The notes beneath the pieces are model-generated. The model ran no database searches. It saw only the letters and a program-made list of their open reading frames with translations, and was not told the origin of the DNA. Positions 1,930 to 37,279 of a stretch of DNA of 64,000 nucleotides are shown in pieces. A program made the translations under genes and the position numbers. Origin of the DNA: Escherichia virus TH54; sequence record MT446420.1; one strand, given 5' to 3'. Positions within the stretch are counted from its first letter, which is position 1. Each line of letters opens with the position of its first letter.

Positions 1930-3743
1930 TGGTGTTTAACCCTATGCATGATTTCTTTATTTTTGCCGAGATTAAATCCGCGTTCGTTCGGATTTCCCAA
2001 ATAACCACAAGTTCTTCTTATTGTGTTCATCTTTTTAGGGTCAGTTTCTCCACAAATAGAACAAACAAATCCGTTTTCAGTAGGAGTCATTTCATGGGTA
2101 CTTCCACATGTAAAACATTTATCTACTGGCATATTAACACCAAAATAATCTAAATGTTGTGCAGCATAATCCCACACAGCCTCAAGACCTTTTAGATTAT
2201 TTTTCATATCAGGAAGTTCAACATAAGAAATATGTCCGCCTGTCGCAATGAAATGATATGGTGCTTCGCGAGAAATCTTTTCAAACGGGGTGATATTTTC
2301 TTCTACTGAAACATGGAAACTATTAGTGTACCAGCCTTTATCAGTAACATCTTTTACACTTCCATATTTTTCAGTATCAAGTTTACAGAAGCGATAGCAC
2401 AGGTTTTCAGCAGGAGTAGAATACAAGCTAAAAGCAAAACCGGTTCTTTCGGTCCACTGCTTAAGACGAGCATTCATTTTAGTTAAAATTTCTTGCCCAA
2501 TATCACGACCGACAAGAATATTCAATTCGTGAATACCAATGTATCCCAAAGACACTGAACTTCTACCGTTTTTAAATAACTCAATTATATCATCATCGGG
2601 TTTAAGACGAACCCCGAATGCACCTTCTTGGTAAAGAATAGGAGCAACAGTCGCTTTAACTCCTTTTAAGGAATTAATTCTACACATCAAAGCTTCAAAA
2701 CACAAATCCATTCGCTCATTGAACAATTCAGTAAATTTCTGTTCATTGAACTGTGTTCCAATATAAGAATCTAACGCAATACGAGGAAGATTCAGTGTTA
2801 CAACGCCAAGATTATTACGCCCATCAAGAATTTCATTACCAGTCGAATCTTTCCATACGCCCAAGAAACTACGGCAACCCATTGGAGAAACAGGAATAGA
2901 TGAACCGGTGATAGCTTTGTTATTCTTAGCCGAAATGATGTCAGGATACATTCTTTTGCTTGCACACTCTAAAGCAAGCTGCTTAATATCATAGTTCGGG
3001 TCGTCTTTATAAAGATTAACACCTTCTTCAACGAACATAACAAGTTTAGGGAAAATAGGAGTTATCCCATCACGACCAAGACCTTTAATACGATTTTTCA
3101 GAATTGCTTTCTGAATCATTCGTTCAGTCCAATCAGTTCCCGTACCAAATGTAATGGTTACAAAAGGCGTTTGTCCATTTGAACTAAAGAGAGTATTTAC
3201 TTCATATTCATAAGCTTGGAATGCATCGTATACGTCTTTTTCTGTTTTAGATTGGGCATAATTCAATGCATCAGTGATTTGCCATTTTTCTGCGTCTTCA
3301 ATATGTTTTGCGTATGTACGTTTAACATAAGGAGAAAATACTTTGTCTACATTAGCAAAAGTCGTTCCGCCATATTGGTGAGAAGCAACCTGTGCAGTAA
3401 TTTGTGCCATAATTGCAGTAGCAACACCAATTGATTTAGGAGTTTCAATCTGTGCATTACCGAGTTTAAATCCGTTCTCAAGCATTCCTTTTAAATCTAC
3501 TAAACAGCAATTAGTAAATGGAAGAGCAGGGGAATAATCAATATCATGGAAATGAATAATTCCACTTTCATGTGCTTTCATAATAAAAGACGCAACCATA
3601 TTTTTGGCAATGTGTTTAGATACAATACCAGCCATAAGGTCACGTTGAGTTGGAAAAACACGAGAATCTTTATTAGCATTCTCGTTTAAAAGGTCTTTAT
3701 TAGTTTTATGAATCAATCCTTCAATTTCGTTTTCAATTGTCAT
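1926..3743 (-). CDS. nrdD: anaerobic ribonucleoside-triphosphate reductase, 605 aa, uninterrupted
   Basis: 605 aa as T4 NrdD; C-terminal glycyl-radical motif RRTCGYLG; C-terminal Cys cluster. Confidence 0.95.
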   Translation of the reverse strand: MTIENEIEGLIHKTNKDLLNENANKDSRVFPTQRDLMAGIVSKHIAKNMVASFIMKAHESGIIHFHDIDYSPALPFTNCCLVDLKGMLENGFKLGNAQIETPKSIGVATAIMAQITAQVASHQYGGTTFANVDKVFSPYVKRTYAKHIEDAEKWQITDALNYAQSKTEKDVYDAFQAYEYEVNTLFSSNGQTPFVTITFGTGTDWTERMIQKAILKNRIKGLGRDGITPIFPKLVMFVEEGVNLYKDDPNYDIKQLALECASKRMYPDIISAKNNKAITGSSIPVSPMGCRSFLGVWKDSTGNEILDGRNNLGVVTLNLPRIALDSYIGTQFNEQKFTELFNERMDLCFEALMCRINSLKGVKATVAPILYQEGAFGVRLKPDDDIIELFKNGRSSVSLGYIGIHELNILVGRDIGQEILTKMNARLKQWTERTGFAFSLYSTPAENLCYRFCKLDTEKYGSVKDVTDKGWYTNSFHVSVEENITPFEKISREAPYHFIATGGHISYVELPDMKNNLKGLEAVWDYAAQHLDYFGVNMPVDKCFTCGSTHEMTPTENGFVCSICGETDPKKMNTIRRTCGYLGNPNERGFNLGKNKEIMHRVKHQ

Positions 3744-10435: not shown

Positions 10436-10500
10436 TATTCTCCAGTATTTGGTAACTCAGTATGGGAACATTATACGTCTATCCCCATACTATGTACACA
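10436..10500 (-). promoter_or_regulatory. early promoter/leader cassette (conserved CCATACTGAGTTACCAAATA ... GGAGAATAAAATG)
   Basis: repeated about 50-nt element. Confidence 0.5.
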
Positions 10501-15469: not shown

Positions 15470-15530
15470 TGTATTCTCCTCAGTAGTTGATGGGATAATA
15501 GTACACCCTTTTTATGAGGATGTAAACCCC
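15470..15530 (-). promoter_or_regulatory. early promoter-like cassette
   Basis: GTTTACAT -35-like plus conserved leader. Confidence 0.45.
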
Positions 15531-21238: not shown

Positions 21239-21538
21239 TTAAAAAGAACCAGAGCCTTTAATTGTGTTCTGGCGACCTTTATTTTCTAATTCAGAATGGT
21301 CGATTTCGTATGCTTGTGCTACACCAAAGGCCTTTTTAACTTTAGCTAAAGAACCTTTAGATGTAACAATATTAAAAGTATTACCTTTAGTAAAATCAAC
21401 CAAATCCACTTGTACACCCTGTTTACCGAGGCTTGCTACAATAGCATCAACATATTGTTGGTCTAAATTACCCTGAACCCCAATTTGAAATGCTTTAGGA
21501 GCTTTGACTTCAGTAATAAATTCTTGATAAGTTTTCAT
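21239..21538 (-). CDS. internal-protein-like, capsid targeting sequence MKTYQEFITE
   Basis: T4 IP-type CTS at N-terminus. Confidence 0.8.
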   Translation of the reverse strand: MKTYQEFITEVKAPKAFQIGVQGNLDQQYVDAIVASLGKQGVQVDLVDFTKGNTFNIVTSKGSLAKVKKAFGVAQAYEIDHSELENKGRQNTIKGSGSF

Positions 21539-21594
21539 TTATTCGCTCCAAGTTGATAGGATAATTATACACTATCCCATCATAAAGTAAACAG
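21539..21594 (-). promoter_or_regulatory. early promoter-like cassette (GTTTAC, TATAAT inside palindrome)
   Basis: GTTTAC...GGGATAGTG-TATAAT-TATCCC. Confidence 0.5.
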
Positions 21595-21858
21595 TTATGC
21601 TTTACCGCCAGAAACAATACCAAAGGTCTCAAAGTCCCATTCAATATCGTCAACATCAACTTTCTTACCAGCAACCACGAATGCGATTTCGCGACGTTTT
21701 GCATAGGTGACAATTTCTTTACCATCACCACCAAAGAAAGAATAACCATTGCGCTTCATGGTGCCAAAGTCTTCAGCATCACCGGCGAAGGCGCGGACTT
21801 TAAAAGCACCGGTAGGAGCTTTAGCAGATTCAGTAATAAATTCTTGATAAGTTTTCAT
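21595..21858 (-). CDS. internal-protein-like, CTS MKTYQEFITE
   Basis: CTS; paralog of 34932..35231. Confidence 0.8.
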   Translation of the reverse strand: MKTYQEFITESAKAPTGAFKVRAFAGDAEDFGTMKRNGYSFFGGDGKEIVTYAKRREIAFVVAGKKVDVDDIEWDFETFGIVSGGKA

Positions 21859-21871
21859 AATGTCTCTTTAA

Positions 21872-22186
21872 TTACTCTTTAGGGAAATCACGCAAAAATG
21901 CATCATAAAGTTTATTACCAATGCGACGGAATGCTTTTGCCGCATGAACGTTATCCGGATTTGCAATTTTAATCTGCATTACATGACTACCAGCCCATGA
22001 TTTGGCTTCATCATAATAGCCTTTAATTTCTTTAATAGTCTTACGTTTTCCACCAGGGCCATCAACAGTAATTTTCCACGAACCCGTGCTCGTTTCACTT
22101 GGTGGGGTTAATTGTTCAATCCAGACATAACCACCTTCAACACGTTTTTGGGTAGATTCAGTAATAAATTCTTGATAAGTTTTCAT
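21872..22186 (-). CDS. internal-protein-like, CTS MKTYQEFITE (start trimmed)
   Basis: CTS. Confidence 0.75.
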   Translation of the reverse strand: MKTYQEFITESTQKRVEGGYVWIEQLTPPSETSTGSWKITVDGPGGKRKTIKEIKGYYDEAKSWAGSHVMQIKIANPDNVHAAKAFRRIGNKLYDAFLRDFPKE

Positions 22187-22234
22187 TTTATATTCCATTG
22201 TTTGGTTGATAAAATCATTATACAACCTTTTTAG

Positions 22235-22651
22235 TTAAGCGTACACAGCTTTCCCATAGTATTTGTACCAGGTAGGCTTTTGAGAAATTTTCTCATTCAG
22301 TCTGGCTTGACTGATTTCAATTGACCAGATTGATGGTTGATAATCATTTTTCCATTCATCAGGAATATCACTTAAATCTTGGGTAGAAATATCTTTTATG
22401 TTAAACCCTCGCTTTAAACATTCTGCAATAAGTTCTTGATGACGGTTTTTAAGGAACAAAAGTTTATCATAAAAGAAGGTAACATGACCAGTCCCTAAAA
22501 GAAAAGATGATGGGATTTTAAAGTCAGAAACCTTTTTACCATTTTGCACATGCTTACGAACAGCACCAAACACGCGAGGAAGTTCACGATATTCAGCCAT
22601 AAGATGTTGGTCAGCGAGTTCAGATACCAGGGTTAAATTAATGCGAGTCAT
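22235..22651 (-). CDS. denV: endonuclease V (pyrimidine dimer DNA glycosylase)
   Basis: 138 aa, near-identical to remembered T4 DenV. Confidence 0.95.
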
Positions 22652-22706
22652 GTTTGTTCTCCGTAGTTGATAGGGTCATTATAACCCTATCATTTGGAGA
22701 TGTACA
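22652..22706 (-). promoter_or_regulatory. early promoter-like cassette
   Basis: GTGTACA...ATAGGGT-TATAAT-GACCCTAT. Confidence 0.5.
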
Positions 22707-23195
22707 CTAATATGCGTCAAAAGTTCCGGTACGGAACGTTTCTATAACTCGTTTGGCTCGGTTCGGAGTCTGGACTTTATACCATCTCGAGTCGGCCAGT
22801 TCCTTAGCGGCGGCTTCCCACGATTTGGCCTTCAACAATCGCATACCCTTAGGAAAACCAGCTACCCCTGCAACACCCATCTGGAATACCATATTAATGA
22901 GTGCACAACGACGAACTTCATCCAGTACATCATAAACAGGTTTTAAGACAGGATGCCTCAAGATTCCGGCTTTAGCTTTTTCGACCGAACGGTTAAACAA
23001 TGTTTCAGCTTCGTGCTGGGTTATGCGACCATTGCAAACGCGACCCATGAGCTTATCGAGTTCGGCACGAGCAACATCTTTTGATGGGTTCTTAGTTATC
23101 AGTTGCCCGATACCAATGGTCCAATAGCCTTCAGTATCTTTATACAAATCCAACTTACAACCTTCATCTATGCGTAACATTTCGAATATATTCAT
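22707..23195 (-). CDS. e: endolysin (T4 lysozyme)
   Basis: [12 protein letters not shown]...[11 protein letters not shown] matches remembered T4 lysozyme. Confidence 0.96.
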
Positions 23196-32966: not shown

Positions 32967-33043
32967 TGGTCGGGGTGGTGGGATTCTAACCCACAACCTA
33001 CGGTTTAGAAGACCGTTGCTCTATACAATTGAGCTACACCCCG
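32967..33043 (-). tRNA. tRNA-Arg (anticodon TCT), CCA encoded
   Basis: hand-folded cloverleaf: acceptor CGGGGTG/CACCCCG, D-stem GCTC/GAGC, anticodon loop CTTCTAA, T-stem GTGGG/CCCAC. Confidence 0.8.
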
Positions 33044-33045
33044 GG

Positions 33046-33119
33046 TGGCCCCATCCGGACTTGAACCGGAAACCTGCCAGTTATGAGCCGGATGCTCTAA
33101 CCAATTGAGCTACAGGGCC
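33046..33119 (-). tRNA. tRNA with anticodon CAT (Met or Ile2)
   Basis: hand-folded cloverleaf: acceptor GGCCCTG, D-stem GCTC/GAGC, anticodon loop CTCATAA, T-arm TCCGG-TTCAAGT-CCGGA. Confidence 0.75.
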
Positions 33120-34378: not shown

Positions 34379-34564
34379 TTACTCACCTTTGGAGATTTTA
34401 TCCATAACAAAAGAGATTGAACCAATTAAAAATGCAACTACTAAAGAGATTATATTCTCAGAAGTTGAAAGCATATTCAACATAAAGCCAGCAAACATGC
34501 TAAAACCAAAAGCGGTAACAGCAACAAGGGCAGTAACATTTCTAATTAATTCGCAACGTTTCAT
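34379..34564 (-). CDS. small membrane protein, 61 aa
   Basis: two TM helices; promoter cassette upstream. Confidence 0.5.
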   Translation of the reverse strand: MKRCELIRNVTALVAVTAFGFSMFAGFMLNMLSTSENIISLVVAFLIGSISFVMDKISKGE

Positions 34565-34621
34565 TTTATTCTCCTCAGTAGTTGATGGGATAATTATACG
34601 CTATCCCATTCAAATGTACAC
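34565..34621 (-). promoter_or_regulatory. early promoter-like cassette (ATGGGATAGCG-TATAAT-TATCCCAT)
   Basis: conserved element. Confidence 0.5.
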
Positions 34622-34876
34622 TTATTTTTTAGGGATACGATAGTAACGCATCTCAACATCTTTCTGCTTGTGCCACTTTTTGATAAGGTCTTCAGAACCT
34701 TTAATGGTAACGATGTCATAGCGACCATCATGCGATACTTCAGCACTTAACTGCATGAAGTTGTCTAATGAACGGCGGAATTCTTCATTAGAAAAACTGC
34801 CACGCGGGGAACCAACATAAGCAAACTCAACTTTTGCATCTGCGGCTTCGTTAATAAATTCTTGATAAGTTTTCAT
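34622..34876 (-). CDS. internal-protein-like, CTS MKTYQEFINE
   Basis: CTS. Confidence 0.8.
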   Translation of the reverse strand: MKTYQEFINEAADAKVEFAYVGSPRGSFSNEEFRRSLDNFMQLSAEVSHDGRYDIVTIKGSEDLIKKWHKQKDVEMRYYRIPKK

Positions 34877-34931
34877 TAGTAGCTCCAGTAGTTGATGGGA
34901 TAATTATACTGCAACTATCCCATCGCGTACA
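34877..34931 (-). promoter_or_regulatory. early promoter-like cassette
   Basis: conserved element. Confidence 0.45.
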
Positions 34932-35231
34932 TTACATTTTTGAACCACGAATTACACCATAAGCGGCGAAGTCGTCAGAAATATCTTTAGGAGAGTTCTT
35001 ACCAGTTTCAATGAAGGCAATGCTTGACTTCTGACTAAAAGAGGTAATTTTGTTATAGTTGGAGTCAAGGAAGGTATAACCATTTTTACGCAGCTGGTCA
35101 AAGTCTTCAGCGTCGCCTTTACCTTTGAAGTCAACCCATTTGTAGGTGTTTTTCTTCTGAAGGCCCAGAGGCCAGGTTTTTGCTTCTGCCAGGTAATTGT
35201 TTTCTACCAAAAATTCATGAAAAGTTTGCAT
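34932..35231 (-). CDS. internal-protein-like, CTS MQTFHEFLVE; paralog of 21595..21858
   Basis: CTS; shared GDAEDF...NGY.F motif. Confidence 0.75.
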   Translation of the reverse strand: MQTFHEFLVENNYLAEAKTWPLGLQKKNTYKWVDFKGKGDAEDFDQLRKNGYTFLDSNYNKITSFSQKSSIAFIETGKNSPKDISDDFAAYGVIRGSKM

Positions 35232-35239
35232 TTGAAATC

Positions 35240-35512
35240 CTATTTTAGATAAATTGCATATTTTTTATAACCAGCCGTCTCATGACGGAGACCCTTGTCA
35301 TTGGCAAAACGCTCAATGTTATTAATTTGGTTCTGGTCAAGTTCTGAAATGTCAAACGCGAAAAAGTTGCGTTTGTTGCCAATTGTTATATGGTCAGTTA
35401 AGTCAATGCTATACAGGTGATTGATATTGTCAATCATAGCTTTGACTGCTTTACTAATTTTTACTTCTTCATTCAGTTGGGACTCGTTGAAAAATTCATT
35501 GAAAGTTTTCAT
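35240..35512 (-). CDS. internal-protein-like, CTS MKTFNEFFNE
   Basis: CTS. Confidence 0.75.
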   Translation of the reverse strand: MKTFNEFFNESQLNEEVKISKAVKAMIDNINHLYSIDLTDHITIGNKRNFFAFDISELDQNQINNIERFANDKGLRHETAGYKKYAIYLK

Positions 35513-35520
35513 AAGAAACC

Positions 35521-35853
35521 TTATTTATAAAGTTTTGCCAGTTCTTTACGTCCGCGAGCAGACATAATAAATTGTTCATCGCCAATTTTAAAATAAGCCA
35601 TACCGCCGTCAACAGCGATACCAATTTCTTTAGTACCTTCTTTGCCTTTCCACTTGCCACCAGATTTCAGGACAGCTTCAACTGCAGCTTTGGAATATTT
35701 GGACGTTTGAAAACGTTCATTACCAATCTGAAAGAAAACACCATCTGCATTTTTGGTTAAACCAAATTTCAGAGAGCCTTCACTATCATCAATTGATTTG
35801 GTCTCATTGATGGCGGATTCGGCTAAAAACTCGTTGTAAGTCTTGATGTTCAT
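35521..35853 (-). CDS. internal-protein-like, CTS MNIKTYNEFLAE
   Basis: CTS; start trimmed. Confidence 0.75.
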   Translation of the reverse strand: MNIKTYNEFLAESAINETKSIDDSEGSLKFGLTKNADGVFFQIGNERFQTSKYSKAAVEAVLKSGGKWKGKEGTKEIGIAVDGGMAYFKIGDEQFIMSARGRKELAKLYK

Positions 35854-35913
35854 TTTAACTCCGTTTGTTCGTTGGTGTAGGAACATAATACTGCACCTAC
35901 ACTCATTTGTACA

Positions 35914-36601
<688 letters not shown>

Positions 36602-36602
<1 letters not shown>

Positions 36603-37279
36603 TATATTACCTTATTAATTTTATCAAAAAGTTCTTCGAGTGTGCCATTGTTTTTAATAACAATGTCACTAGCTAGTGGTGGAAGTCCAGCTTCCGTAAT
36701 GTGTGTATCAGTAGAATGATTTGCTTCATCGCGTTCTACAAAAATTATTGTAGCACCCATCGCCCGAAGCGAATCAAGTTCGTTCTTTTGGCGAACATCA
36801 GGGACAACGTAATATTTATATCCAGAATAAAGGTTGTCAAGATAGTCGCATGCAAAAGTTTTAATCCAAAACATGCTGTCGAACTCTGTACAAACGATGT
36901 CAGTTCCAAGGGTCTGCATGAAACGTCTAACCGTCCAGGGCTCAACATTATTTAGTGTGTGAAATTCAATGATTTTACGAACCATATCTGGATTCGGAAG
37001 GTCAAGATTGTATTGTTGTTTCAACCATTCAAGAGCATCAACCAGAAGAATATAAGCTTCGGTGTTGTTCATTATCAAGGTTTTTTCACGGTCATAACCT
37101 TGTCCATCAAAATTTTCCAGGGTCAAATTGTGTGGTAGGTCTTGACGAATCCACGCTTTATAAAGCGCTTCTTTAATCGGACCCGCAAGCTGCCACTTTG
37201 TTCCGTTTTGACTAATAACATAATCAGCAGTCGTATCTTTACCACTGCGTTTTTTACCCACAATCGCAATTAATTTCAT
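36602..37279 (-). CDS. 1: deoxynucleoside monophosphate kinase
   Basis: Walker A GKKRSGKDT; synteny. Confidence 0.92.

Follow-up and report, generated by a model that had tools for sequence, protein, structure and literature searches.

Bacteriophage T4 encodes internal proteins (Ips) that carry an N-terminal capsid-targeting sequence (CTS): they join the scaffolding core, gp21 trims them, and, having stayed with the DNA, they pass into the host on ejection (PMC3012670, PMC9026906). In the tag of IPIII, positions 4 and 7 serve targeting and positions 8 and 10 processing, with gp21 cutting after L/I-x-E (PMC9026906), and IPIII is functional in the cytoplasm without its CTS. Since 2025, each of the three T4 proteins has been known to counter a type IV restriction enzyme of its own, Ip1, Ip2 and Ip3 each inhibiting a different GmrSD (PMC12373910). 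The description of the interval between 57B and trna.4 as a hyperplastic ip locus goes back to Repoila (1994; cited by both PMC3012670 and PMC12373910). In T4-like phages, cassettes are excised and inserted by recombination at promoter/stem-loop (PeSL) elements (Arbiol 2010; Comeau 2014; PMC2839356, PMC4122927), and the tag sequences themselves were proposed as recombination substrates by Repoila et al., as quoted in a PeSL paper that cites them. Here we describe the ip locus between 57B and trna.4 of Escherichia virus TH54 (MT446420.1), analysed within a stretch of 64,000 nt (the window; all coordinates are window positions).

The best overall explanation of the region is probably that of a Gaprivervirus ip locus with four cassettes whose products are packaged and injected, and whose arrangement has been reshuffled by recombination. 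As such it would be an ordinary case, a new combination of alleles of an internal-protein system described since 1994.

Four tagged genes at the site of T4 ipI

The window was assigned from its sequence to a T4-like myovirus of the genus Gaprivervirus (VR7/EAWsc9-like), and positions 34400-36000 share 95-98% identity with EAWsc9, ECML-359, TH41, UPEC01, VR7, VR20, VR25 and SP18. The initial annotation had placed four tandem CTS-tagged genes at the position of T4 ipI, and both points hold. The genes, here called ipA to ipD, lie on the minus strand where it had located them, with the N-termini that it had named (Table 1), and the flanks, 57B and trna.4, match exactly: T4 has a single ipI precisely between these two genes, and the arrangement also agrees with the layout of VR7. 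The ipA-ipB and ipB-ipC gaps measure 8 nt each, and ipA, ipB and ipC form one operon. Translation of ipA was assigned to the ATG at 35853, which is preceded 5 nt upstream by GGAG and is the sole start available in one relative (L005); a longer open reading frame from 35886 was rejected, as it has no Shine-Dalgarno sequence and its start falls inside the upstream stem-loop.

Capsid-targeting sequences

A scan of the window in all six reading frames for the pattern [KQR]T[YF]xEF gave exactly seven matches, four at the 57B locus and three just downstream of denV (locus 1), and every match lies no more than three residues from an initiator Met. By chance far fewer would be expected (200 first-order Markov simulations gave a mean of 0.16 matches and a maximum of 2). 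The seven genes have in common T3, an aromatic amino acid as fourth residue, E6, F7 and E10. In all four proteins of the 57B locus the targeting positions 4 and 7 (offset by two residues in ipA) are occupied by Y/F and F, respectively, and in ipA, ipC and ipD the four positions important in IPIII (4, 7, 8 and 10) are Y/F, F, I/L and E.

The shared 5’ ends might instead be conserved as DNA or RNA signals, such as recombination sites or translation-initiation regions, rather than as a peptide tag. Over 30 nt the tags of the three locus-1 genes do not differ, and that of ipD departs from them by 2 nt, so these stretches are plausible recombination substrates. We nevertheless regard this as a very improbable account of the conservation: ipA, ipB and ipC preserve the tag residues through synonymous codon changes (AAG/AAA, TAC/TAT, TTC/TTT, GAG/GAA), which argues that the peptide itself is under selection, and the function of the tag has been established experimentally in T4 (PMC9026906). 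The two roles are, moreover, compatible.

The gp21 motif L/I-x-E can be recognized in all four proteins. The tag of ipD is canonical, with INE ending at residue 10, and ipC carries two consecutive sites (MQTFHEFLVE-NNYLAE, in which LVE ends at residue 10 and LAE at residue 16). In ipA (MN-IKTYNEFLAE) the candidate sites are LAE ending at residue 12 and INE ending at 17, while ipB has a canonical candidate, LNE, ending at residue 15. From what is known of T4, the tags are inferred to be cleaved.

Proposed packaging, injection and function

In the mechanism that we propose, each small basic CTS protein would dock through its tag of ~10 residues on the scaffolding core of the assembling prohead, and the gp21 prohead protease would then cut the tag after L/I-x-E. 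The mature protein would stay in the head with the DNA, be ejected with it into the host and act there ahead of all phage gene expression; a first-line nuclease or another host defence is what it would most likely block. Homologous recombination at the promoter/stem-loop elements between the cassettes, and at the CTS codons, would reshuffle the set. Given what is known of T4, packaging and injection of the four proteins are likely, and an anti-defence role is, by analogy, somewhat favored. The genes of the core and of the protease fall outside the window, which breaks off within the portal gene; in UPEC07 (98.5% identity over the stretch that could be matched) gp67, gp68, gp21 and gp22 follow directly. 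In Morganella phage MP1, virion tandem mass spectrometry detected gp136, a member of the ipC family, with 6 peptides and 59% coverage; its gene adjoins 57B, its predicted mass is 11,213 Da, and it is 41% identical to ipC.

Several observations weigh against this interpretation. No canonical late promoter was found before the operon, and the single TATAAATA, at 35522-35529, falls in the last codons and stop of ipA, too near the ipB ATG (T4 ipI likewise lacks a canonical late promoter). The MP1 mass spectrometry also detected the non-structural 57B and dNMP kinase, which makes the detection of gp136 weak evidence; a literature search on VR7 virion proteins returned nothing useful. In addition, ipA has a two-residue extension before its tag, the ancestral ATG now reading ATC, and ipB has a non-canonical FNE ending at residue 10, with F rather than L/I at P3.

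These last two deviations from MKTYQEFIAE, at the N-terminus of ipA and at the processing position of ipB, are also what would be seen if only some of the four proteins were still packaged and the tags of ipB and/or ipA had decayed, leaving cytoplasmic or uncleaved products; in T4, changes at positions 8 and 10 do affect processing (PMC9026906). Such decay is quite unlikely, however, since both variants are conserved across many phages and the targeting residues are intact. Furthermore, the second canonical L/I-x-E site of ipA, like that of ipB, lies five residues downstream, and the leader of T4 IPI is itself 19 residues long.

The remaining points concern function, and they too count against the interpretation given above. 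None of the seven Ips of the window belongs to the families of T4 Ip1, Ip2 or Ip3, so that a relationship by homology had to be discarded: the four proteins match phrog_3966 (ipA), phrog_7673 (ipB), phrog_2667 (ipC) and phrog_8111 (ipD), whereas Ip1, Ip2 and Ip3 fall in phrog_4363, phrog_7857 and phrog_5341, and the alignment with IPII shares the tag only. Consequently, no target can be transferred from T4. Gapriverviruses are, in addition, reported to lack known enzymes for the synthesis or glycosylation of hydroxymethylcytosine (hmC) and to keep homologues of denA, denB, alc and dCTPase (PMC8056088), so GmrSD enzymes specific for glucosylated hmC may not be the relevant enemy. Hence, where the initial annotation had spoken of an anti-defence repertoire of seven injected proteins, the seven tagged genes are borne out and the anti-defence part is an analogy.

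Cargo domains of the four proteins

By sequence, none of the four proteins matched a solved structure or a Pfam family. The cargo of ipC had been described as paralogous to that of a locus-1 gene, the one encoding 87 residues, and pairwise alignment upholds this relationship. The two products are 33% identical over their full length (E 1e-16) and, with both tags removed, 38% identical over 61 aa (E 4e-15), with the GDAEDF, NGY(S/T)F, IAF and G..V blocks in register. Relatives of ipC were found by tblastn in 192 GenBank phage records, frequently with two copies per genome. A profile search of 1.84 billion representatives returned no tag-less or cellular relatives; the matches were CTS-bearing phage proteins, together with spurious hits to long repeat proteins.

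Two further pairings between the loci were rejected. ipA and the 104-aa locus-1 product both match phrog_3966 over their full length, but BLASTP aligns the tag only, and hhalign of the tag-stripped family alignments gave a probability of 0.2%. The 99-aa locus-1 product and ipC, both in phrog_2667, likewise have only the tag in common. Both phrog_3966 and phrog_2667 mix unrelated cargoes joined by the 10-residue tag (hhalign probability <1% once it is removed), and membership in either does not, therefore, imply homology of the mature proteins.

ipA, which resembles VR7ORF156c, has homologues in 55 GenBank phage records (tblastn), almost always annotated as hypothetical. Its two halves align with each other (95% probability, E 3.9e-8), and its sequence consists of a ~45-aa unit duplicated in tandem. 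An AlphaFold model built from a 12-sequence alignment (predicted local distance difference test, pLDDT, of 76.7 overall and 82-89 in the core) shows two beta-beta-beta-beta-alpha units, and the predicted fold is Whirly/PUR-like. The other four AlphaFold models were less confident. Sequence searches did not place ipA in the Whirly, PUR or SsgA families (no Pfam match with E <= 0.1, no PDB match with E <= 1), a fold search of BFVD returned only its own family, and our literature search found no paper linking the Whirly fold to bacteriophage internal proteins. For ipC, structure prediction, which the initial annotation had proposed for each cargo, gave a small alpha/beta sandwich (pLDDT 72) with no informative fold match.

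ipB matches phrog_7673 over its full length (E 1.7e-56), is 80% identical to the Ip9 gene of RB32 (tblastn) and, in its mature part, 84% identical to a protein named Ip9 in RB15. We accordingly identify it by sequence as the Ip9 orthologue. It is found in 172 GenBank phage records (tblastn), annotated as Ip9 or internal head protein. The Ip9 cargo also occurs without a tag, in 12 siphovirus records of ~43-45 kb, two of them named Kagunavirus (among them are BCH953P1 and Bas70); EC3-1 is listed beside Bas70 among these tag-less loci. The 72-aa protein of Bas70 (PQ850619.1, 3501-3719) aligns without gaps, end to end, with residues 19-90 of ipB (51% identity, E 1e-29), and thus begins three residues past the predicted LNE site at residue 15. 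The comparison shows the tag to be something added to a free-standing gene. In Bas70 this gene heads an operon of small hypothetical genes that is transcribed away from a helicase-primase replication module, a place that fits a role immediately after DNA entry.

ipD matches phrog_8111 (E 7e-15) and is 45% identical to VR7 Ip6, the N-terminal third being common to both. Its family comprises 245 GenBank phage records (tblastn), with at least 90% identity in 14 and 41-56% in the 231 of the T6-type Ip6. We classify ipD as a divergent allele of the Ip6 family, its 84-aa form being rarer than the Ip6 type.

Variability of the ip loci

To place the four cassettes among those of other phages, we compared 28 57B-anchored and ~37 denV-anchored T4-like loci from IMG/VR. 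The number of CTS cassettes at the 57B locus ranges from 0 to 5 across the 28 loci. Clustering of the mature parts gave ~24 cargo families (more than 20), eight of which, including those of ipA, ipB and ipC, occur at both loci. Movement between the loci is therefore common, and the proposal that cargo modules have moved or been duplicated between them stands. The exact order of the four cassettes, as one uninterrupted alignment, was absent from the 30 best database matches.

In the 23 genomes that have both loci, Ips number 1-9 per genome, with a median of 4 (counted after two false positives of a loose pattern had been dropped); the three Gaprivervirus genomes have 6, 7 and 9. The view that seven constitutes a large repertoire is thus right with respect to this median and to the three of T4, but seven is ordinary for a Gaprivervirus. 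The repertoire had also been called uncharacterised: relatives already annotate most of the genes of the 57B locus (orthologues in VR7, VR20, VR25 and many Tevenvirinae are named ip6, ip9 or internal head protein).

Cargo turnover also bears on a third alternative, in which the proteins are packaged and have a physical role, neutralizing charge, organizing the DNA, or coating and escorting it during ejection. The mature forms of the four proteins, of 8.7-10.2 kDa, are basic (pI 8.3-9.5), the Whirly/PUR fold predicted for ipA is typical of single-stranded nucleic-acid binders, and T4 heads hold ~1000 DNA-embedded IP molecules (PMC3012670). However, a physical role would explain neither why close relatives differ so extremely in their cargo families nor the strict target specificity of Ip1-3, and siphoviruses carry tag-less Ip9 cargo that they cannot package by the CTS route. 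We consider it unlikely.

PeSL-like elements and probable cassette exchange

A conserved element of ~57 nt precedes ipA (as a variant), ipD, trna.4 and the locus-1 gene that starts at 21538. From the upstream stop codon onwards it reads GTGTAC, a spacer of 16-18 nt and TATAAT, and its stem, ATGGGATA..TATCCCAT, extends over the -10 hexamer; the stems overall range from -12 to -19 kcal/mol. The ipA variant reads TGTACA-N17-TATTAT, sigma-70-like in 9/12 positions, with a stem GTGTAGG..CCTACAC over the -10 (-14.8 kcal/mol, z -2.2). The ipD element (ATGTAC-N18-TATAAT; -17.3 kcal/mol, z -3.3) shares a perfect 24-nt repeat with 34576-34599, the trna.4 element (GTGTAC-N17-TATAAT plus stem-loop) is sigma-70-like in 10/12 positions, and the locus-1 element folds with -19.2 kcal/mol (z -5.2). 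A 22-nt core motif is present in 5 copies in the window, versus 0.01 expected.

The promoter-like pattern GTGTAC-N-TATAAT has 4 copies versus 0.08 expected. Away from the ip cassettes, further copies of the core or of this pattern lie at 484-505, 15483-15504, 10470-10499, 22678-22707 and 22217-22246. Their scatter suggests a genome-wide family of PeSL-like sequences.

Relative to EAWsc9, the window lacks 291 nt, corresponding to one 80-aa Ip cassette (phrog_3499) and its upstream spacer. The breakpoint (34929/34931, blastn versus EAWsc9) lies right after the ipC stop, at the start of an element. VR7 has its counterpart of this cassette, VR7ORF153c, between two near-identical 57-nt elements, so that a single repeat-by-repeat exchange would give the arrangement of the window. 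Sequence traits of PeSLs are present: a repeated intergenic element with a sigma-70-like putative promoter and a stable stem-loop, and an indel bounded by the elements. The near-identical CTS codons are a second class of candidate recombination substrate. Recombination at these two kinds of repeat would explain both the cassette missing with respect to the closest relatives and the paralogue common to the e/denV locus.

Genomic context

On the minus strand, the order of genes is dNMP kinase, 57A, 57B, the four ip open reading frames, the trna.4 homologue (a 61-aa membrane protein without a CTS), more small open reading frames and two tRNAs (Table 1). The tRNA genes, at 32967-33119, are only two, Arg-TCT and Met/Ile2-CAT; T4 has eight tRNAs and segB. 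Since gp57B/Acb1 is an anti-CBASS phosphodiesterase, a proven anti-defence gene abuts the ip array. At locus 1 (around 22235-22707), denV comes immediately after e, with the three ip genes on the downstream side of denV. Just upstream of denV, VR20 and VR25 possess one more CTS cassette, of family F7, which starts at locus position 3660 and which the window does not have.

Table 1. Coordinates of the genes and PeSL-like elements at the two ip loci
Feature	Coordinates	Strand	Remarks
dNMP kinase	36602-37279	minus	
57A	36369-36602	minus	
gp57B/Acb1	35914-36369	minus	conserved upstream boundary of the ip locus; Pfam PF23474, E 1.5e-59; phrog_755; T4 57B position
PeSL-like element before ipA	35854-35913	minus	
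ipA	35521-35853	minus	110 aa; N-terminus MNIKTYNEFLAE
ipB	35240-35512	minus	90 aa; N-terminus MKTFNEFFNE
ipC	34932-35231	minus	99 aa; N-terminus MQTFHEFLVE
PeSL-like element before ipD	34877-34931	minus	
ipD	34622-34876	minus	84 aa; N-terminus MKTYQEFINE
PeSL-like element before trna.4	34565-34621	minus	
trna.4 homologue	34379-34564	minus	conserved downstream boundary; phrog_1692, E 7e-34; trna.4 in VR7 and T4
Locus-1 CTS gene, directly downstream of denV	21872-22186	minus	104 aa; family F4
Locus-1 paralogue of ipC	21595-21858	minus	87 aa; MKTYQEFITE; family F6 (3 copies at 57B loci, 4 at denV loci)
Locus-1 CTS gene	21239-21538	minus	99 aa; family F0; PeSL-like element 21539-21594 before the gene

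Discussion

Internal proteins are the sole phage counter-defences that are on hand as protein at the moment of DNA entry. Targets have been assigned for the three T4 cargoes; over 20 other cargo families, including these four, have yet to be matched with theirs, and the locus therefore offers candidates for host-range and anti-defence screens. The concept, the locus and most of the genes had been described or annotated before, so that our analysis adds detail and no new principle; only the fold predicted for ipA (Whirly/PUR) and the Ip9 homologues without a tag go beyond prior knowledge.

Taken together, these two points and the reported absence of the known hmC pathway allow a broader and decidedly tentative reading, which we hold to be possible and rather less than probable. 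According to it, the 10-residue tag would have been put on free-standing early genes that circulate among unrelated phages and are the first to act, and ipA would be an injected nucleic-acid binder, one that protects the DNA on its way in or titrates a defence based on nucleic-acid sensing, rather than a nuclease inhibitor. With Gapriverviruses reportedly lacking the known hmC pathway, the seven Ips could be directed at defences other than GmrSD.

With respect to known systems, the closest counterparts are IPI, IPII and IPIII of T4 (Repoila 1994; Mullaney & Black 1996; Silas 2025), whose genes occupy the same two genomic positions and share the N-terminal CTS with L/I-x-E, the small basic cargo and the promoter/stem-loop between cassettes. 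The cargo domains, in contrast, are unrelated, T4 has one cassette between 57B and trna.4 where the window has four, and the locus-1 ip genes of T4 lie between e and denV rather than downstream of denV. The repeated elements follow the design seen in T4 before ipI, trna.4, ipII, ipIII and denV (GTTTAC, stem, TACTAT). Like the PeSLs of T4-like phages, they lie between small accessory genes and have sigma-70-like hexamers at -35 and -10, the latter covered by a stem-loop. The published consensus stems of RB49, PST and nt-1 differ from the ATGGGATA/TATCCCAT stem of the window. Finally, the two beta-beta-beta-beta-alpha repeats that define the Whirly/PUR-repeat proteins with which ipA was compared (MRP1/MRP2, plant Whirly p24, Pur-alpha and SsgB) are both present in its predicted model.

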